A stretch of 64,000 nucleotides of DNA from Patescibacteria group bacterium. Lineage in GTDB: Bacteria > Patescibacteriota > Patescibacteriia > JBAZBY01. This document shows, piece by piece, positions 42,031 through 50,190 of this stretch (position 1 is its first letter; every line of letters starts with the position of its first letter). The translations under genes were made by a program, and so were the position numbers. Under the pieces are notes generated by a model. It was not told where the DNA came from. It worked only from the letters and a program-made list of their open reading frames with translations, and ran no database searches. The stretch spans positions 30,338-94,337 of the forward strand of contig JBAZBY010000001.1 of the NCBI GenBank assembly GCA_041671225.1, given 5' to 3'.

Positions 42031-43719
42031 TTACATTTTTTTTGGCTTAGAAAGACCAAGAAGGTCTAAGATGCCTGTGAGTATTGTATCTGACATCTGG
42101 ACGATCTCCAAACGCCGTGGATCATACGAGACATCATTCTCAATGATGCGCTCGGTGTCATAAAAAAGATGGAATGCTTCAGCATATTCCAATGCAAAGT
42201 TTGCAAGACGATGCACTTCATAGGTGCGGCCCACGTCATCCAGTATTTCAGGAAATCGAAGAGAAAGCACAACGAGCCTGCGGGCGCGCTCAGAAAGCTC
42301 CCCCGGCTTCTGCTTTTTAAGCGGTGCGGCCTTACGTTTTGAAAGTGTTGCAAATGTAGAAAGCAAACTCTGCACGCGCGTGTATGCATATTGTAAATAA
42401 TACACCGGGTTCTCTTTGCTTTGTTTCTTTGCAAGATCAAGATCAAAATCCATGTGCCGGTCAGCGGTATACATAAGAAAAAAGAAACGCGCGGCATCGG
42501 GGCCAACTTCCTCCATAACTTCTTCCAATGTAATAAACGTTCCCTGACGCTTGGACATGCGCACTTCCTTGCCGTCCTGAAGAATCCGCACCAGCTGAAA
42601 AATCAATACATCAAGCGGTTGCGTGAGATCCAATGCCTGCCGGGCTGCCTGAAGCCGTGGAACAAACCCATGATGATCCGCGCCAAGTAAAAGAATTGCG
42701 CGGTCAAAGCGGCGGATCTTAAACTTCTCCCAGAGATACGCAATGTCCGCATAAAAATATGTGGTCGTACCATCGCTCTTCACAACAACACGATCTTTAT
42801 CATCGCCAAAGCGCGTGGTGCGAACCCAGGTTGCGCCGTCCTTCTCATACACCATACCATTCTCTCCAAGGCGCTTGAGCATCTTTTCAAGCAGATCGCG
42901 GTCATGTAATTCTGATTCAGAAAAATAACGATCGAACACGATGCCAACCATCTTCAATGAGTGTTTGATTCGCGTCATCATCTTACGCACTGCCCGTCCG
43001 CGAATTTTATTCCGCAGTCTTTTGGTGTCATCAAGGCGTTCATGGTCCAAATCCAAATCCTCTGCAAGCTCACGGATGTACTCTCCTTGATAGAGCTCAT
43101 CGGTAAAGGCAACCGGGATGCCGCGCTTCTCCAAATAGCGCCGGATAACCGACTCCGCCAGTGTATCAATTTGCTTTCCGGCATCATTGAAGTAATACTC
43201 GCGATGCACCTTTTTGCCGAGTGCAGTGAGCACGCGCGCAATCACATCACCCATAAATCCACCGCGACCATTTCCTGCGGTAAGCGGACCGGTAGGGTTC
43301 GCGGAAATATATTCAAGATGAACCCGCTCCGCGGGCTTTTCTTTCAATTCCCAAACTGCCTTTTTCTCCTTAATAGCCTTCTTGATAAAACGCGTCAGCC
43401 ATTCACGATCAAGTGAAACATTGATGTACCCCGGATGCACCACATCAACACGTGCAACAAATGCGCCAGGCTTGGGGCCGGCGGCCAATTTTTGCGCAAT
43501 GTCCATTGGACTCATTTTGAGAATGGGCGCGAGTTGCATTGCGATACTGAGGGCATACTCTCCATACCGCGAATCCGCAGGATACGAAACATCCGCCTTT
43601 GGAAGGTGTTCCGCATGCTCTGGAAAAAGCCGTCGCATGCGGGCGGTGAATTCTTCCTCAAGTCTATCGCGAAGTCGTTGCATAAAAGCAGTATATCCTG
43701 CCCGCACTCGTCTCCACAA
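42031..43719 (-). CDS. argS: arginine--tRNA ligase
   Basis: Class I aaRS with a KMSK-type motif (KMSKRQGTF) and a C-terminal DALR anticodon-binding region. The start may be the internal ATG at 43683. Confidence 0.92.
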   Translation of the reverse strand: MWRRVRAGYTAFMQRLRDRLEEEFTARMRRLFPEHAEHLPKADVSYPADSRYGEYALSIAMQLAPILKMSPMDIAQKLAAGPKPGAFVARVDVVHPGYINVSLDREWLTRFIKKAIKEKKAVWELKEKPAERVHLEYISANPTGPLTAGNGRGGFMGDVIARVLTALGKKVHREYYFNDAGKQIDTLAESVIRRYLEKRGIPVAFTDELYQGEYIRELAEDLDLDHERLDDTKRLRNKIRGRAVRKMMTRIKHSLKMVGIVFDRYFSESELHDRDLLEKMLKRLGENGMVYEKDGATWVRTTRFGDDKDRVVVKSDGTTTYFYADIAYLWEKFKIRRFDRAILLLGADHHGFVPRLQAARQALDLTQPLDVLIFQLVRILQDGKEVRMSKRQGTFITLEEVMEEVGPDAARFFFLMYTADRHMDFDLDLAKKQSKENPVYYLQYAYTRVQSLLSTFATLSKRKAAPLKKQKPGELSERARRLVVLSLRFPEILDDVGRTYEVHRLANFALEYAEAFHLFYDTERIIENDVSYDPRRLEIVQMSDTILTGILDLLGLSKPKKM

Positions 43720-43742: not shown

Positions 43743-44192
43743 ATGCCGAATCTCACCACAAACAAGCGTGTCCTCTTCGACTATACCGTTATTCAGAAGA
43801 TTGAGGCGGGTATCAAGCTCACAGGCGCAGAAGTGAAGTCAGCAAAGATGGGACAAATGAAACTCCAGGGTGCGTACGTCGCGATTCGTGATGAAAAACC
43901 CTGGCTTGTTGGTGCGCGTATTGCCCACTACCATAAAGCCTCACATGACCAGCAGCATTTTGACCCAGAACGTGATAGAATCCTTCTGCTCTCAAAAAAG
44001 GAAATTAGGCAACTTATCGGTAAAATAAGTGCTGAGGGCTTGACAATTATCCCTATTTCTGCTTATACTAAGGTAGGATTAATAAAGATCGAGCTTGGAC
44101 TCGCCCGCGGAAAACGCAAGGCAGACAAACGAGAATCAATTAAAAAGCGAGATGTTGAACGGCGCATTAAGCAGCGCCTACGGCAACACTAG
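43743..44192 (+). CDS. smpB: SsrA-binding protein
   Basis: 149 aa with SmpB core and a basic C-terminal tail (ARGKRKADKRESIKKRDVERRIKQRLRQH). Confidence 0.93.
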   Translation: MPNLTTNKRVLFDYTVIQKIEAGIKLTGAEVKSAKMGQMKLQGAYVAIRDEKPWLVGARIAHYHKASHDQQHFDPERDRILLLSKKEIRQLIGKISAEGLTIIPISAYTKVGLIKIELGLARGKRKADKRESIKKRDVERRIKQRLRQH

Positions 44193-44294
44193 GTGGACAA
44201 CCGCCCAGCACCTTCTACAAGAATCATTCTGCATATAGTCGCAAACAGCTGATCATCGGAAGATCATCAGAGCAGAGTAGAATGAAGGTGCCGG

Positions 44295-44691
44295 GGGGAT
44301 GTTCAAAAGTCGCAAGTTCATTACAAGACGTTAGCGCGAATCGGAGGTGCTTTATACTCCGTAACCCATAAAGCAAACAGAAGTGCAAACTTCATTACAA
44401 AGGTGAAGAATACTGTCGCGAATGCTTTCAGCGTTCCACAGCTCTCACCTATTGCTGTCGCCTAAACGCGATAGCCATCCGCTTCAGGATTCCTGATACT
44501 GAAATCCGGGTGCCATTCATCAGGATCGGTAGTCGGTTGTCTCGACTGAGTACCTAAAATTCCGAGACGATGTGAGAAGGGGCTTTTGGTTGTTTCTTAC
44601 CTTTCTCACTTACTTTTAAAACAGCCTACATTCGTAGATGCAGACGTCCGAAATGAGTTTCACGCGGGTGAAAGACCCGCCATCTCCACCA
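44295..44691 (+). ncRNA. ssrA: transfer-messenger RNA (tmRNA, ssrA)
   Basis: Immediately downstream of smpB in a 400-nt stretch with no ORF of 60 aa or more. The 5' GGGGAUG (44295-44301) pairs with the 3' CAUCUCC (44681-44687) to give a 7-bp acceptor stem with a G3.U wobble. Discriminator A plus encoded CCA at 44688-44691. T-arm GCGGG-UGAAAGA-CCCGC. In-frame tag candidates begin with Ala-Asn at 44373 or 44418 and share a TAA at 44463-44465 (for example ANAFSVPQLSPIAVA). Confidence 0.75.
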
Positions 44692-44716
44692 GTCTTCGCC
44701 CGCTAGGGCGAAGACT
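44691..44716 (+). terminator. hairpin immediately 3' of tmRNA
   Basis: 11-bp perfect stem AGTCTTCGCCC-gcta-GGGCGAAGACT with no U-tract. Could be a terminator or a processing structure. Confidence 0.45.
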
Positions 44717-44792
44717 GTCCGTCGAAACTTCGAGCATTGCGAGGAGTGAGGGCGGACACATCAGGCTACGACTGGCACAGCCAGTTCTCAAG

Positions 44793-45362
44793 ATTATTAT
44801 TGTCACGACAATTCGTAGATCACCGAACCGCCAGAGGCAGGCATTCAAACCCACGCAACCACAGCATCGGCTGAATGACGCTATCCGCGCACCTGAAGTC
44901 CGTGTCCAGGACAATCAAGGTGAACAACTTGGAATCATGCCAATCGCAGAAGCCCTGCGCATAGCGCAAGAGCAGGGTTTTGATTTGATTGAGATTGCTC
45001 CACAGGCACAGCCCCCTGTGGTGCGTATTGCTGATTACGGTGCCTGGAAGTTCCGTCAAGAAAAGATGGAGCGAAAACAGAAGGCCCACCAAAAAAAGTC
45101 AGAAGTAAAGGGAATTCGCCTTTCTTTCACTATTGGAGAGCATGATTTGGAGGTTCGAAGAAGCCAGGCCTTGAAATTTCTTGAACAAGGAGATAAAGTG
45201 AAGCCCGAAATTATCTTGCGCGGACGGCAGATTATCCACCAAGATAAGGCGCGAGGCTACCTCATCGCCTTTGCAAAGGATCTCGGAGAGGGCGTCTTTA
45301 TTGAACAGCCCATCAGCAGGCAGGGTAAAAAATTCTTTATGGTTATCGCTAAGAAAAAATAA
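44793..45362 (+). CDS. infC: translation initiation factor IF-3 (non-AUG start, probably ATT)
   Basis: C-terminal 170 aa of ORF 44586..45362 align to IF-3 (NDAIRAPEVRV, GEQLGIMP, KKQKAHQKKSEVKGIRL, DLEVRRSQALKFLEQGDKVK). The N-terminal 69 codons of the ORF cover the tmRNA and its hairpin and contain no ATG, GTG or TTG. In-frame ATT codons at 44793, 44796, 44799 and 44811 are candidate starts. Confidence 0.75.
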   Translation: MIIVTTIRRSPNRQRQAFKPTQPQHRLNDAIRAPEVRVQDNQGEQLGIMPIAEALRIAQEQGFDLIEIAPQAQPPVVRIADYGAWKFRQEKMERKQKAHQKKSEVKGIRLSFTIGEHDLEVRRSQALKFLEQGDKVKPEIILRGRQIIHQDKARGYLIAFAKDLGEGVFIEQPISRQGKKFFMVIAKKK

Positions 45363-45562
45363 TGGCAAAACTCAAGACACGAAAGGCAATATCAAAGCGC
45401 GTCAAAGTCACCGGCACAAAGAAGCTCCGCACCCGCCACGGCGGTCAGGATCACTTTAATGCTCGTCAGACGGGTAAGATGAAACGCAATAAGCGTATGA
45501 ATAATACTATCCATAAGACGCTTCGAAAATCAGTAAAACGGCAGTTGCCGTATAACAACTAA
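45362..45562 (+). CDS. rpmI: 50S ribosomal protein L35
   Basis: 66-aa basic protein starting MAKLKTRKAISKRVKVTGTKK; TAATG stop/start overlap with infC. Confidence 0.93.
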   Translation: MAKLKTRKAISKRVKVTGTKKLRTRHGGQDHFNARQTGKMKRNKRMNNTIHKTLRKSVKRQLPYNN

Positions 45563-45566
45563 CGAT

Positions 45567-45908
45567 ATGCGCGTTAAACGAGGTACGAGTCATGTAAAGC
45601 GACGTCGAAATCTCCTGAAGAAGGCGAAAGGTTTTAGTTGGGGTCGCAAAAGTCACATCAAGAAGGCAAAGACCGCCGTTACAAAAGCAGGCGTTCATGC
45701 CTATCGCGACCGCCGACGCAAAAAGCGCGAGAAGCGTGCGCTCTGGCAGATTCGCTTGAATGCAGCCGCGCGTCAGGAAGGCATGACCTACTCACAGTTC
45801 ATCCACGCACTTAAAATCAAAGAGATCGCGCTCAATCGGAAGGTTCTCTCTGAGATCGCAATGGACGAACCAGCGGTATTCGCTGAGATCGTCAAAAAAG
45901 TCAAATAA
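45567..45908 (+). CDS. rplT: 50S ribosomal protein L20
   Basis: N-terminus MRVKRGTSHVKRRRNLLKKAKGF is diagnostic; completes the infC-rpmI-rplT operon. Confidence 0.95.
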   Translation: MRVKRGTSHVKRRRNLLKKAKGFSWGRKSHIKKAKTAVTKAGVHAYRDRRRKKREKRALWQIRLNAAARQEGMTYSQFIHALKIKEIALNRKVLSEIAMDEPAVFAEIVKKVK

Positions 45909-45959: not shown

Positions 45960-46319
45960 TTATTCCTGCCAGGGAGATTTTTCTGTACGGCCGGCAAGAA
46001 ATGTTCCAAGAAGCACGCCGAGGGTATCAATCCCCAGATCAACAAAATTACCATTGCGACCTTGTACAAATGATTGATGCCACTCATCACTTGCCGCATA
46101 AAGAATACCAATCACGAGCGTTGGCCAAAGCTTATTACGAAATCCAAGTGCCTTATGAATCAGCAACGCAAGAATAACAAACTCCATAATATGCGCTCCC
46201 TTGCGCAAGATAAGATCCGCGGTTGAGGAGAGATCCGTCGCAAGATCAGGAAAGCTCGATAGCAAAAAAATCACACTGGCCCAGAGAAGTGCTGCAATGC
46301 TATAAAATAATCGAGACAT
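45960..46319 (-). CDS. VanZ-family membrane protein
   Basis: VanZ-like 4-TM layout (MSRLFYSIAALLWASVIFLLSS ... ASDEWHQSFV). The ORF-track N-terminal extension to 46406 is the antisense of tRNA-Asp. Confidence 0.7.
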   Translation of the reverse strand: MSRLFYSIAALLWASVIFLLSSFPDLATDLSSTADLILRKGAHIMEFVILALLIHKALGFRNKLWPTLVIGILYAASDEWHQSFVQGRNGNFVDLGIDTLGVLLGTFLAGRTEKSPWQE

Positions 46320-46326
46320 AATATAC

Positions 46327-46404
46327 TGGCGGACCCGACCGGATTCGAACCGGCGATCTCCTCCGTGACAGGGAGGCGTGTTAACCAGGCTACACCACAG
46401 GTCC
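46327..46404 (-). tRNA. tRNA-Asp (anticodon GUC), CCA encoded
   Basis: Hand-folded cloverleaf: acceptor GGACCTG / CGGGTCC (one G.U); D-stem GTGT / ACAC; anticodon stem CCTCC / GGAGG with loop CUGUCAC; variable loop 5 nt; T-arm GCCGG-TTCGAAT-CCGGT; discriminator G; CCA. Confidence 0.9.
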
Positions 46405-46609
46405 ACGTTTGCTTACTAAAAATGCAGAGCGCAGCATAGCATGCGAAACGAAGTCTGTCCAGAGAAGTCAAAATAAGCATATATGCATCCGTTCCCGTGG
46501 CCGGCCAATCCTGACACACAAAGATTGCCGCTGATTCTATAAAGTGTAAGCTTGCTGTGAAAACAGAAATCGCCCTTTGACATGCCTGGTAACAACTAAC
46601 CCAAATCAT

Positions 46610-46825: not shown

Positions 46826-46859
46826 AAAAGGAACCGCCCTCGGGTTCCTTTTCGCTTTT
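46826..46859. terminator. bidirectional intrinsic terminator
   Basis: AAAA, then GGAACCGCCC-tc-GGGTTCC, then TTTTCGCTTTT. Ends the plus-strand small ORF and the minus-strand 1110-aa gene. Confidence 0.65.
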
Positions 46860-49800
46860 ACTGTATCACAATCCCGCTCGCAGAGAATGGAATGACATTT
46901 GCAATGCCAGAGAGCGGGCCGGTGACGATGTCATCCACGCCATCACCATTCACATCACCAGAAGCCACGCTTGTGCCATACCGCGTGGTTTTGCCGTAGG
47001 CAAAGAACTGCGCGTCAACATTCCCAAATGCATCAAGTGAGCGTACATGCGGACCGCCAACCGCCGCCGGTACGACAATAATCTCATCAAAACCGTCCGC
47101 ATCCACGTCCCCTGCTGCCACAGAGAGCCCAATGCGGAACTCCTTGGGGTAAGCGAAGAACTGGCCTTCCAAGGTGCCACGCCCGTCAAAAATGCGTACA
47201 TGCGGACCGCCAACATTCAAGGGAACAATGATGATCTTATCCCGATTCGTGTCATCAATATGCCCCACCGCAACAGAAAGCCCGAGCCGATACCAAGCGG
47301 GATATGCAAAGAATTGCCCGAGTACATTCCCATTGCCGTCGAAGACGCGCACTTGCGGACCTCCGCGCTCACGGGGCGTCACGACAATCTCGTCTTTGCC
47401 ATCGCCATCCACATCGCCGGCGGCAACCGACGCCCCAACGCGAATATTTGATGCGAACGCGTAGAATTCACGCTGAAGATTTCCGCGAGAATCAAAGATA
47501 CGAATAAGCGGATAGTTCCCCACTTCCGTTCCGGTGATGATTTCAGCAATACCATCACCATCAATATCGCCAGCCGCGATGGTTGTTCCACCCCGGTACG
47601 TTGAATCATATGCAAAAAATTGACCCTTCACGCTTCCCTCTTTTGAAAACACGCGAACCTGCGGGCCACCAGAACCTTTTGGCACAGTAATAAGATCATC
47701 AATGCCATCGCCGTCGACATCACCAACGGCAACATTCACACCACCCTGAAAAAAAGTGGGGTACGAAAGAAAACCATCGACCACATCAAGGGTAAAGGTT
47801 CGTGTTGGTATGCTTCCGTCTGCCTCCTGCAGCGTAAACGAAACAGGAAAGATATCTGTCTGCCCGTCCACATTTGTTACCTTCACGTCATACCACCCTG
47901 TTGGCATCTGCGCGATAGGGATCACAATCGTCGCACTGGTATCGCTCTTGATATACACCGTTGCCGGGTACGGGCCGAACTGGGCCTGCATCCCATGACG
48001 AAAGCCAGTGCCACTCATATCCAAATAGGCCTCCGAAGCGGTATGACTTGCCTTCTTGATAGTATTTGGCCCAATGCCGCTCACTTCTGGTGCGTCTTCT
48101 GCAAACGGTGCAGGACCAGTGATATCCACGCGACGAATAAGATCGCTCCATTGATCTGCAACATAAAGCGTGCGGCCAGTGTGGTCTACTGCCAGTCCAG
48201 AAAGATTATTGAACTCCGCCGTACTCGGGGCGCCGTTCTCAAAACCACGCACACCCTCACCGCTGATCAGCTTAGAAACATTTGCCGTCAAATCATACAG
48301 CCGGATACGATGCGAACCATTGTCAGTGATATAAAGGATATTGTCATCAAACTCCACATAGAGTGGAAAGGAAAAAACGGCATTGTCGCGTACGCCCTCT
48401 AAATAACCTGCACTACCACGGCCTGCAATGGTGACAACGTCCTGCGTGGCGATCTCAATACGACGAATGGTGTGATTATTGCGATCAGCAACGTAGAGAT
48501 AGTTCCCGTTACGGTCGATGGTGATGCCCCACGGCGCATTAAACTTTGCATTGCTGCCCGTGGCATCCGCATTCCCCTTGCTTCCGCCTGCAACAAGTGT
48601 CGTTACGCCGGTGGAGATGCGAATCTTACGAATGCGATTGTTTGACGTGTCCGTAATATACAACCACGCATCATCTGGGCTAATGGCGATATCCGTAGGA
48701 TTATCAAAACGCGCCGCTGAACCCGTACCCTCTGCATACCCATTCCCCGGACCACCGGTGTTGAAATCCCCACCTCCTGCCACAAGCGAGGTCATCTTAC
48801 TCGCAATGTTTACCTTACGGATGCGATTATTCCAATGGTCAACCACATAAAGATTCTCCCCCGCTGAATCAATCGTGATACCGGATATATTTGAAAAACG
48901 GGCATCCTCGCCAGAGAATCCCTCGCCAATATAATCATCAATACTGCTGCCAACAATCCAGCTCCCATCAACGCTTCCTGTTGCGCGCGTCATCCGACGA
49001 ATTTTATTATTTTCAGCAAGATAGATATACGTCCGATCCGGGCTTATCACCATATCATGTGGCCGACCAAGAAGCGCACCGGTTCCTGTGCCGCTCGTAA
49101 ATCCAAAACGATCGTTGCCGGCAAAACGAACATCATCACCATCTGACGTTGCAAACTGCACAACCGTTGAGAGCCCTGCCATGGCAACGTAAAGCTTATT
49201 ATTATATGCAGCAATGCCTGCAGGATAATTCACAACCCTCATTCTTGCATCACTCACAAAAAGCTCCGTTGCACCGGTGCTTGTATTCACTTTACGGATA
49301 TAATCCGTGAGTCCATTACCATCACTCACATAAAGCGTACTCCCAACCTTCGCAATACCCCAGAGATTTTGAAACCGTGCCGTGCTCGCAGCGCCTTCTT
49401 TGTATCCCTTCGTGCCAGAACCAGAAAGCGTGCTCTTGATACCGCTCCGACGATCAACCTTCATGACCTTGTAGAGTCCTGCATCCGCAACATAAATAGT
49501 CACGTCAGTCACAACGAGCTTCTTTGGTTCACTAAGCCCTGTTGTGAGCGTTGTGACGGAACCACCATTCGTGCTGACGAAAAGTATCTTCCCGCTGCCG
49601 GTCTCCGCGATATACAGCGTCGTGTTGTAGACAGCAAGCCCCTCCGGCCCAGAAAGATTTGAAAGGAGCGTTGAAACAGAACCGCTTGGCGTGATCTTCC
49701 GGATGGCATTGTTGCCGGTATCCGCAACATAGATGTTGCCGGAGCTATCGCGGGCGATGCCGCGTGGCAAACCAAACTCCGCGCTGTCTGCCGCGCCGTT

Positions 49801-50190
49801 GCGCTCACCAAACGCGCCCGTGCCGGCATACGTGGAAATCTTTCCATTTGTCCCAACTTTACGAATAACATTATTGTAGGTATCTGCGATGTAAAAATTG
49901 CCACTGCCGTCAGAAAGCACGTCCTCAGAAAAATCCAAAAGCGCAGACGTTGCCGCCTGCCCGTCGCCGCTATATATTTTTCCAACATAGGTCTCAGCTT
50001 CACCATATGCATGCGCTGTTCCCCCAAAAACAAAAAATGCCATGAAAGTGATGGCTATGATAGGAATGATGCGCTGCGATTGAGTGAAATACACCCCCAT
50101 TGCCATTACACTATAGCGCATTCTGAGACATTTTTCAAGCAAAAAAAATCGGGAGGACATTCGCTTAGCAGCGAAGCCTCCCGAGTTCAA
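46858..50190 (-). CDS. giant secreted/surface protein with NHL repeats and C-terminal FG-GAP/VCBS repeats
   Basis: At least 8 NHL-type repeats (GNFYIADTYNNVIRKV, GNIYVADTGNNAIRKI, LYVADRNNHTIRRI and others) and 6 FG-GAP-like Ca-binding repeats (VGDVDGDGIDDLI, AAGDIDGDGIAEII, AAGDVDADGFDEII and others). Signal-peptide-like segment MAMGVYFTQSQRIIPIIAITFMAFFVFGGTAHA; the true start is probably internal to the ORF-track start. Confidence 0.8.
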   Translation of the reverse strand: MNSGGFAAKRMSSRFFLLEKCLRMRYSVMAMGVYFTQSQRIIPIIAITFMAFFVFGGTAHAYGEAETYVGKIYSGDGQAATSALLDFSEDVLSDGSGNFYIADTYNNVIRKVGTNGKISTYAGTGAFGERNGAADSAEFGLPRGIARDSSGNIYVADTGNNAIRKITPSGSVSTLLSNLSGPEGLAVYNTTLYIAETGSGKILFVSTNGGSVTTLTTGLSEPKKLVVTDVTIYVADAGLYKVMKVDRRSGIKSTLSGSGTKGYKEGAASTARFQNLWGIAKVGSTLYVSDGNGLTDYIRKVNTSTGATELFVSDARMRVVNYPAGIAAYNNKLYVAMAGLSTVVQFATSDGDDVRFAGNDRFGFTSGTGTGALLGRPHDMVISPDRTYIYLAENNKIRRMTRATGSVDGSWIVGSSIDDYIGEGFSGEDARFSNISGITIDSAGENLYVVDHWNNRIRKVNIASKMTSLVAGGGDFNTGGPGNGYAEGTGSAARFDNPTDIAISPDDAWLYITDTSNNRIRKIRISTGVTTLVAGGSKGNADATGSNAKFNAPWGITIDRNGNYLYVADRNNHTIRRIEIATQDVVTIAGRGSAGYLEGVRDNAVFSFPLYVEFDDNILYITDNGSHRIRLYDLTANVSKLISGEGVRGFENGAPSTAEFNNLSGLAVDHTGRTLYVADQWSDLIRRVDITGPAPFAEDAPEVSGIGPNTIKKASHTASEAYLDMSGTGFRHGMQAQFGPYPATVYIKSDTSATIVIPIAQMPTGWYDVKVTNVDGQTDIFPVSFTLQEADGSIPTRTFTLDVVDGFLSYPTFFQGGVNVAVGDVDGDGIDDLITVPKGSGGPQVRVFSKEGSVKGQFFAYDSTYRGGTTIAAGDIDGDGIAEIITGTEVGNYPLIRIFDSRGNLQREFYAFASNIRVGASVAAGDVDGDGKDEIVVTPRERGGPQVRVFDGNGNVLGQFFAYPAWYRLGLSVAVGHIDDTNRDKIIIVPLNVGGPHVRIFDGRGTLEGQFFAYPKEFRIGLSVAAGDVDADGFDEIIVVPAAVGGPHVRSLDAFGNVDAQFFAYGKTTRYGTSVASGDVNGDGVDDIVTGPLSGIANVIPFSASGIVIQ

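Follow-up and report, generated by a model that had tools for sequence, protein, structure and literature searches.

The smpB-ssrA-infC locus

The window, by which we mean the whole 64-kb stretch of DNA that was analysed, carries the gene order argS (- strand, 42031-43719), smpB (+ strand, 43743-44192), tmRNA, infC, rpmI (45362-45562) and rplT (45567-45908). The smpB gene encodes a 149-residue SsrA-binding protein, the partner of tmRNA, which matches Pfam PF01668 with 157 bits and scores above the cutoff for the NCBIfam equivalogs NF003843 and TIGR00086. Its sequence is that of the NCBI protein 'MAG: SsrA-binding protein SmpB [Patescibacteria group bacterium]' (100% identity).

An earlier note on this DNA had proposed an unannotated tmRNA gene (ssrA) directly downstream of smpB, and had called for searches with ARAGORN and with the Rfam model RF00023. 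Rfam cmscan, run at gathering thresholds, gave RF00023 at 44295-44691 (+) as its only tmRNA match in the window, with 78.3 bits (E = 1e-28) against a gathering score of 47 bits. The model was matched over its full length, the alignment running colinearly and end to end from model position 1 to 374 of 374. The match starts 102 nt after the end of the intact smpB gene, as the proposal required, and its extent agrees with the proposed mature length of 397 nt, with the CCA encoded. The wider interval that had been marked, 44193-44716, does contain ssrA; it also takes in the 102 nt that separate it from smpB and, beyond the CCA, a hairpin of 24 nt. The fold of the whole tmRNA was better than that of 100 out of 100 shuffled sequences (minimum free energy z = -4.76). 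No second tmRNA was found by Rfam in the 64-kb window besides 44295-44691. A permuted or two-piece layout and a group I intron in the T-loop are likewise absent, since the standard Rfam model aligns colinearly and the 7-nt T-loop is uninterrupted.

Together with the covariation and the conserved tag frame described below, the RF00023 score and the neighbouring smpB bear out the proposed identity. We conclude that 44295-44691 is almost certainly a functional ssrA, encoding the standard one-piece tmRNA of a Patescibacteria (CPR) bacterium. Membership in the family, a secondary structure that covaries, a tag frame that is conserved and an intact SmpB next door are direct observations on this gene. 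It is an ordinary housekeeping gene of a known family and not a new kind of thing. The supplement of the 2025 tmRNA database lists 5,252 standard tmRNAs for 6,765 Patescibacteria genomes (PMC11915505), so the phylum is well covered overall and the window gene does not represent a novel type.

Relatives were collected as 80 genome loci from an SmpB alignment, together with the contigs of the closest SmpBs and a pattern scan of metagenomes. Rfam placed a tmRNA after smpB in nearly all of the roughly 70 related loci scanned, and adjacency of smpB and ssrA is the commonest smpB neighbourhood (PMC4131195). The three closest relatives have SmpBs of 65-74% identity, the same synteny and a gap of 650-800 nt between smpB and infC. 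The close set stayed small because the metagenome scan for this subfamily gave only two contigs, which carry one identical tmRNA sequence.

We also examined the flanks of ssrA. When 130 nt of upstream sequence were aligned by eye, a block common to the closest relatives emerged at 44205-44250 (+), reading 'CACCTTC...TAGTCGCAA' in the window, L081 and L082 and including a -10-like TATAGT (44234-44239). The block is a possible ssrA promoter. A promoter scan gave no convincing ssrA promoter and did not report 44205-44250. In L084 a perfect TTGACA-17-TATACT lies at a similar upstream distance. A 5' leader hairpin at 44249-44270 was considered and dropped, as it folded no better than shuffled sequence (z +0.5). 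Directly after the CCA, at 44692-44715 (+), is a hairpin with a 10-bp stem, GUCUUCGCCC-GCUA-GGGCGAAGAC (-20.3 kcal/mol, z -5.1), and the relatives each carry a hairpin of differing sequence at the same spot. It is probably a terminator or a 3'-processing stem; a terminator scan did not list it because it has no U tract. The tmRNA 3' end, a repeat of which could mark an island attachment site, occurs just once in the window, and hence there is no sign of an integrated island.

Secondary structure and covariation

The window sequence accommodates the full architecture (H1, H2a-c, PK1-4, H5 and the T-arm) with standard pairs throughout. We scored it on a MAFFT alignment of 25 related tmRNAs, in which the variable pseudoknots are misaligned in distant relatives: 73.8% of cells pair, versus 40-47% when the partners are slid, a control that is inflated for the window row by the derivation of the structure from the window sequence itself. 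The covariation score was 0.429 versus at most 0.195, and none of 500 shuffles attained the observed values. Among the five closest sequences pairing rose to 92% (about 40% slid), with 32 pairs altered on both sides and each helix 80-100% paired. The earlier note had read the nested inverted repeats of the interior as fitting pseudoknots; four pseudoknots could be drawn and are supported by covariation, PK3 being tentative in its detail.

The 5' strand of the acceptor stem, GGGGAUG (44295-44301, +), contains G3 of the G3·U alanine identity pair and pairs with CAUCUCC (44681-44687). The 3' element as a whole, defined by sequence and pairing, spans 44681-44691 (+) and includes the discriminator A (44688) and the CCA (44689-44691). 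All seven pairs (G-C, G-C, G·U, G-C, A-U, U-A, G-C) are kept in 25/25 relatives, and the G·U pair is invariant. The start, the 7-bp acceptor and its G3·U pair had been anticipated correctly, as had the 3' end GCGGG-UGAAAGA-CCCGC-CAUCUCC-A-CCA, which can be read in the sequence and terminates at 44691.

Helix 2 is paired in 76% (H2a), 64% (H2b) and 90% (H2c) of cells across the 25 sequences, and in 88-100% in the five closest, with many double changes. PK1 (44342-44375, +) consists of stem 1, CGGAG/CUCCG, and stem 2, UGCUUUAU/AUAAAGCA, and ends 9 nt before the resume codon; its stem 2 shows compensatory changes in L081, L082 and L083. The tag helix H5 (44454-44475, +), identified by folding and by pairing in relatives, has 8 bp and holds the stop codon in its loop, CUAAAC. 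It folds with -11.8 kcal/mol (z -4.9) and is paired in 84% of cells in the 25 sequences and in 100% in the five closest. PK1 and the tag helix were the elements whose ability to form had been named as decisive for the tmRNA assignment, and both form at these positions, with compensatory changes.

Three further pseudoknots follow. The helices of PK2 (44476-44525, +) are 76-90% paired in the 25 sequences and 96-100% in the five closest. PK3 (44528-44568, +) is 80-100% paired in the five closest and weakly supported in the 25-sequence MAFFT alignment; in L083 a compensation changes GGUA/UACC to GAUA/UAUC. Its exact pairing is tentative, because each of stems 1b and 2 could be lengthened at the other's expense, in competition for two base pairs. 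PK4 (44572-44625, +) is 80-86% paired in the closest relatives. The T-arm (44664-44680, +) has a 5-bp stem, GCGGG/CCCGC, closed by a 7-nt loop, UGAAAGA (44669-44675), of U-GNRA-NN type. Its stem is paired in 25/25 relatives and contains two covarying pairs (G-C/A-U and C-G/G-C swaps).

This layout is that of the standard tmRNA (RF00023; E. coli SsrA), with the 7-bp acceptor, G3·U, discriminator A and CCA, a stemless and reduced D-loop, a 5-bp T-stem with a 7-nt T-loop, a long helix 2, and PK1 closely followed by an Ala resume codon. The placement of the stop codon in the helix 5 loop, the pseudoknots PK2-PK4 after it, the neighbouring smpB and the hydrophobic, Ala-terminal end of the tag are also of the E. 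coli type.

Reading frames in and beside ssrA

Three in-frame Ala openings lead to the UAA at 44463. Two of them, GCA 44385 and GCG 44418, are the Ala-Asn candidates that the earlier note had put forward; both exist, and the longer one, of 26 residues, is the real tag. The third, at tmRNA position 79 (ANRSANF...), was rejected: it lies within PK1 stem 2 and is missing from relatives. We therefore place the tag frame at 44385-44465 (+), with resume codon GCA 44385 (tmRNA position 91), 26 codons (ANFITKVKNTVANAFSVPQLSPIAVA) and the stop UAA at 44463-44465, on the following grounds. A frame of identical length, 26 codons, is present in L081, L082 and L083 (ANFLTKVKNTVANAFRAPQLSPIAVA, ANFLTKVKTAVANAFRAPQLSPIAVA and ANILNKVKTSVAKLFATPQVSPIAVA, respectively). 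Pairwise differences between the tag frames of the closest relatives fall 25/16/53 on codon positions 1/2/3, a third-position bias. In other Patescibacteria ARAGORN, working independently, reported long tags homologous to this one, among them ANVFSRVKNVLANAFNVPALASAVA and ANIFSKVKASVASAFRVPALSMVTA. GCA 44385 itself lies 9 nt past PK1, is preceded by a conserved A-A-R-U, and is aligned by the Rfam model with the consensus resume codon.

Alternatively, in a tmRNA that is just as real, the second Ala-Asn opening could serve as the resume point, and the tag would then be 15 residues long, ANAFSVPQLSPIAVA. GCG-AAU at 44418 is in frame and shares its stop with the 44385 candidate, and 15 residues would be closer to the common tag length of about 10 (PMC11915505). 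The sequence upstream of 44418 nevertheless behaves as coding: codons 1-11, taken alone, are conserved in L081, L082 and L083 with differences of 11/7/18 by codon position. Moreover, the N-terminal motif AN(x)F(x)xKVK recurs in many ARAGORN-called Patescibacteria tags that start from the first Ala, an internal Ala-Asn or Ala-Lys is lacking at the counterpart of 44418 in several relatives (for example L050, ANSLISKVKTAFARLSLVPAVA), and the spacing from PK1, the A-A-R-U context and the Rfam alignment all single out the first GCA. We regard resumption at 44418 as very improbable.

A similar question of where a frame begins arises downstream of ssrA. A mechanically called open reading frame runs from TTG 44586 to 45362 (258 aa), and could be taken to mean that the 3' quarter of ssrA (44586-44691) and the following spacer encode a long N-terminal extension of IF3, the overlap being truly coding. 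The open frame is all that speaks for this reading. Within the 258-aa ORF the TIGR00168 match does not begin until residue 92, and IF3_N not until residue 96. Nor is the extension conserved as protein: L081 and L082 both retain 'ATTCGTAGATCACCG', and everything that precedes it has diverged completely. Conservation sets in exactly at ATT CGT AGA TCA CCG, window position 44811, and upstream of it the sequences have diverged, which leads us to start infC at AUU 44811 (44811-45362, +; 183 aa), in agreement with the domain positions. AUU is a usual start codon for infC. The gene call in L081 (198 aa) also stops short of the tmRNA. When an over-long coding call overlaps a t(m)RNA gene upstream of it, this is known to indicate that its start codon was placed too early (PMC4131195). 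The ORF from TTG 44586 is thus an artefact, and the chance that the overlap is coding is practically negligible. The inflated infC frame had been pointed out earlier and is there, but it was said to swallow the tmRNA, and it overlaps only its last 106 nt.

The tag starting at GCA 44385 ends in ...PIAVA, a hydrophobic and Ala-terminal sequence; its last residues are IAVA rather than the standard ALAA, as had been predicted, and its 26 residues compare with a commonest length of 10 in standard tmRNAs. By sequence, ANFITKVKNTVANAFSVPQLSPIAVA belongs to a tag family common to Patescibacteria. The length of 26 residues and the conservation of this family may indicate that proteases recognise tags by a different logic in this phylum.

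Processing, charging, rescue and degradation would be expected to follow established tmRNA biology. RNase P would trim the primary transcript at G1, and the 3' side would be trimmed back to the encoded CCA, before the stable hairpin. AlaRS would charge the tmRNA through G3·U and the discriminator A, and SmpB, encoded 102 nt upstream, would bind the tRNA-like domain. The tmRNA-SmpB complex would then enter the empty A site of a stalled ribosome, where translation would resume on GCA 44385, append ANFITKVKNTVANAFSVPQLSPIAVA and end at UAA 44463 in the helix 5 loop, and the hydrophobic ...IAVA would mark the product for proteolysis.

A divergent tRNA-like elbow and its effect on detection

The tRNA-like elbow of the window tmRNA departs from the standard form in both of its loops. 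The T-loop is UGAAAGA, whereas standard tmRNAs have UUCAACU or UUCGAAU; the D-loop analogue, UUCAAAAGUCGC (44302-44313, +), has AAAA where GG normally sits; and CAC replaces the conserved GAC as the triplet preceding the T-stem. The tRNA-type UUC and GG are therefore both missing. The only tRNA in the window, tRNA-Asp, has a canonical GG and UUCGAAU, indicating that the elbow change is specific to tmRNA.

We next compared the elbows of 67 distinct tmRNAs from the collected SmpB loci. Where the D-loop GG is present, 33 have UUC in the T-loop and 3 do not; where GG is absent, 1 has UUC and 30 do not. Fisher's test on these counts gives p = 1.6e-14, a value that ignores kinship and is not a count of independent events. 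Twenty of the GG-less tmRNAs have a U-G-N-R-A-N-N T-loop, with GAAA, GCAA, GUGA, GUAA or GCGA at loop positions 2-5, and the D-loops of this class are A/U-rich, for example UUCAAAAGUCG and UUUAUAAUCGA. The earlier note's unusual, UUC-less T-loop is thus real, but it is a class-wide trait in Patescibacteria and not peculiar to the window gene. In a neighbour-joining tree of SmpB most class members fall into a single cluster, a few being outliers; the tree is too weak for counting origins. Canonical Patescibacteria tmRNAs (L038, L055 and L025) resemble the window gene in following smpB, in their length of about 390-400 nt and in their tag family, AN(x)F(x)xKVK...AF.VP.L...VA; unlike the window class, which has neither, they keep the D-loop GG and the T-loop UUC. 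Every member of the window class encodes the CCA, compared with 11 of 33 canonical Patescibacteria tmRNAs.

The tmRNA T-loop is highly conserved, yet the residue equivalent to E. coli U342 (tRNA position 55) is changed to G in Caulobacter and a GG variant occurs in a mitochondrial tmRNA (PMC1168896). The window tmRNA shares this G with the two-piece tmRNA of Caulobacter crescentus and the mitochondrial tmRNA of Reclinomonas (PMC1168896), but those RNAs are permuted, two-piece or organellar and come from unrelated lineages. With U-G-N-R-A and then two bulged bases, the loop also fits the generic T-loop of rRNA, RNase P and riboswitches (a U·A handle plus a GNR turn, the 'G-clamp'; PMC2615604); this likeness is a structural analogy only. 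Single T-loop substitutions are already on record, and we found no description of a coupled loss of GG and UUC in the literature searched, the coverage of which is incomplete.

T-loops generally combine a U·A handle with a UNR or GNR turn (PMC2615604). Since U54 and A58 are invariant and a GNR turn is present, the loop most likely still adopts a generic T-loop fold in which U54 pairs with A58, and we infer that the tRNA-type contacts G18·Ψ55 and G19-C56 are lost from the window elbow. It is conceivable, and we put it forward tentatively, that a sizeable class of Patescibacteria has swapped the tRNA-type elbow (GG to Ψ55-C56) for a GNRA-type T-loop with an A/U-rich D-loop, perhaps accompanied by changes in the central loop of SmpB. 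If so, the contact between D- and T-loops that is reported to be required for SmpB binding in E. coli would be dispensable, or rebuilt, in nature. The coupled loss of GG and UUC offers a natural experiment on how much of a tRNA elbow the tmRNA-SmpB pair needs. Differences between the SmpBs of the classes are concentrated in the central loop, though without a clean separation, and L088 combines a longer central loop with a canonical elbow; these differences are no more than a lead.

The same sequences could be explained in two other ways. In one, which concerns the elbow only, the T-arm has no T-loop at all: a 6-bp stem, extended by U375-A381, would carry a GNRA-like pentaloop, and SmpB alone would hold the elbow. 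Loop positions 2-5 fit GNRA in 20/20 class members, pairing between loop bases 1 and 7 is feasible in the window as in many relatives, and ViennaRNA folds the T-arm with the 6-bp stem. In L011, L023, L024, L039, L041 and L050, however, those two bases are unpairable (U-U or U-C), and the invariant U and A at loop positions 1 and 5, respectively, fit the U54·A58 pair of a T-loop (PMC2615604). We therefore consider the extended stem doubtful. In the other, the locus is a decaying pseudogene, with the odd elbow and the failure of ARAGORN as signs of lost function. This would account for the absence of an ARAGORN call, for the missing UUC and GG, and for an Rfam score below that of canonical Patescibacteria tmRNAs (class median 77 versus 118 bits). 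Against it stand the compensatory changes that keep all helices across relatives, a tag frame under coding-type constraint and an intact smpB next to the gene. The elbow variant is moreover fixed in at least 20 divergent genomes with U54, G55, R57 and A58 conserved, which decay would not produce, and the 64-kb window holds no second tmRNA. A pseudogene is extremely improbable, and we retain the reading of a functional ssrA. Both the elbow variant and the long tag family are traits of the lineage; they are modestly interesting and leave the understood role of tmRNA unchanged.

The elbow does affect detection. With default settings, ARAGORN reported only the tRNA-Asp (46327-46404) in the window and no tmRNA, so this half of the proposed check failed to return the gene. 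At 70% thresholds it found the same ends, 44295-44691, with a wrong tag. ARAGORN found 25 of the 33 tmRNAs with GG and UUC and 2 of the 20 with no GG and a T-loop beginning UG, and the median Rfam scores of these two groups are 118 and 77 bits, respectively. Restoring in silico a canonical T-loop, a canonical D-loop, GGAC before the T-stem, or combinations of these did not lead to detection by ARAGORN at default settings, so the miss reflects cumulative divergence and not the T-loop alone. Divergence of the elbow is part of why gene finders score this ssrA poorly, and the failure of ARAGORN lies with the tool and not with the tmRNA family. ARAGORN alone would have led to the false refutation of a genuine tmRNA, as its default run finds none.

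Rfam is itself close to its limit in some relatives: L005 scores 47.3 bits and L083 53 bits, and in L087 a tmRNA at 1997-2383, with a GGGGAUG start, an end ...CAUCUCCACCA and the tag ANSFIAKVKTAFSQLAFVPAVA, falls below the gathering score. The main search behind the 2025 tmRNA database combined ARAGORN with BLASTN and used Rfam for under-represented taxa only, and 33,537 bacterial genomes were still without a tmRNA (PMC11915505). If the elbow swap holds for the class, searches based on ARAGORN or BLAST would under-count the tmRNAs that have neither GG nor UUC. For annotation, the window provides an example of a universal housekeeping RNA in a CPR genome that is invisible to ARAGORN and near the Rfam threshold, and of how, once the tmRNA is missed, the downstream AUU-start gene is mis-extended over the RNA.

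Traits compared across the elbow classes

We compared the encoded 3' ends of 67 tmRNAs, drawn from the related loci (L001-L089) and the window. CCA was encoded in all 20 tmRNAs of the no-GG/UG class (no D-loop GG, T-loop beginning UG; the class of the window), but in only 11 of the 33 canonical (GG/UUC) tmRNAs of Patescibacteria; canonical genes without it end in ACAA, ACTT, ACGT and other sequences.

Among the SmpB proteins of the window (smpB, 43743-44192) and related loci, the alignment columns that best distinguish one elbow class from the other are concentrated in the central loop (about residues 64-72 of the window's SmpB), which is described as contacting the tRNA-like domain. This loop is one residue longer in the window's cluster (RYHK-ASHDQQHFDP vs PYQP-KN-TPKDYDP). 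The correlation with elbow class is imperfect, L088 being an exception, and is confounded by phylogeny.

Immediately before the T-stem (44661-44663), the window's subfamily carries CAC in place of the conserved GAC. The change bears on the G·A pairs that have been described for E. coli tmRNA, where they lie at the base of helix 2a. ACAC or GCAC occurs at this site in several further tmRNAs of Patescibacteria, some from each elbow class.

Detection with the Rfam model

Rfam RF00023 did not report the gene at L087:1997-2383 at its gathering score (47 bits). This locus is clearly a tmRNA, given its GGGGAUG start, CAUCUCCACCA end and tag ANSFIAKVKTAFSQLAFVPAVA. Scores were borderline for the tmRNAs of L005 (47.3 bits) and L083, one of the window's three closest relatives (53 bits).

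Start of infC and neighboring ORFs

The most likely start codon of infC (44811-45362, + strand) is a non-canonical AUU. The sequence ATTCGTAGATCACCG at this start is kept in the close relatives L081 and L082, and what lies upstream of it diverges. Gene callers gave a 198-aa infC in L081 and truncated 141-aa versions in L082 and L083.

A mechanical GTG ORF of 148 aa (45960-46406, - strand) overruns the tRNA-Asp gene (46327-46404, - strand), a second instance of the artefact seen where the infC ORF runs over the tmRNA. Because relatives encode a VanZ-family protein of roughly 119 aa at this position, the internal Met (MSRLFYS...) is probably where the gene truly begins. Farther along, a very large ORF of 1110 aa (46858-50190, - strand) contains many repeated segments, NHL-like (‘YVAD..NN.IRK’) and then FG-GAP-like (‘GDVDGDG’).
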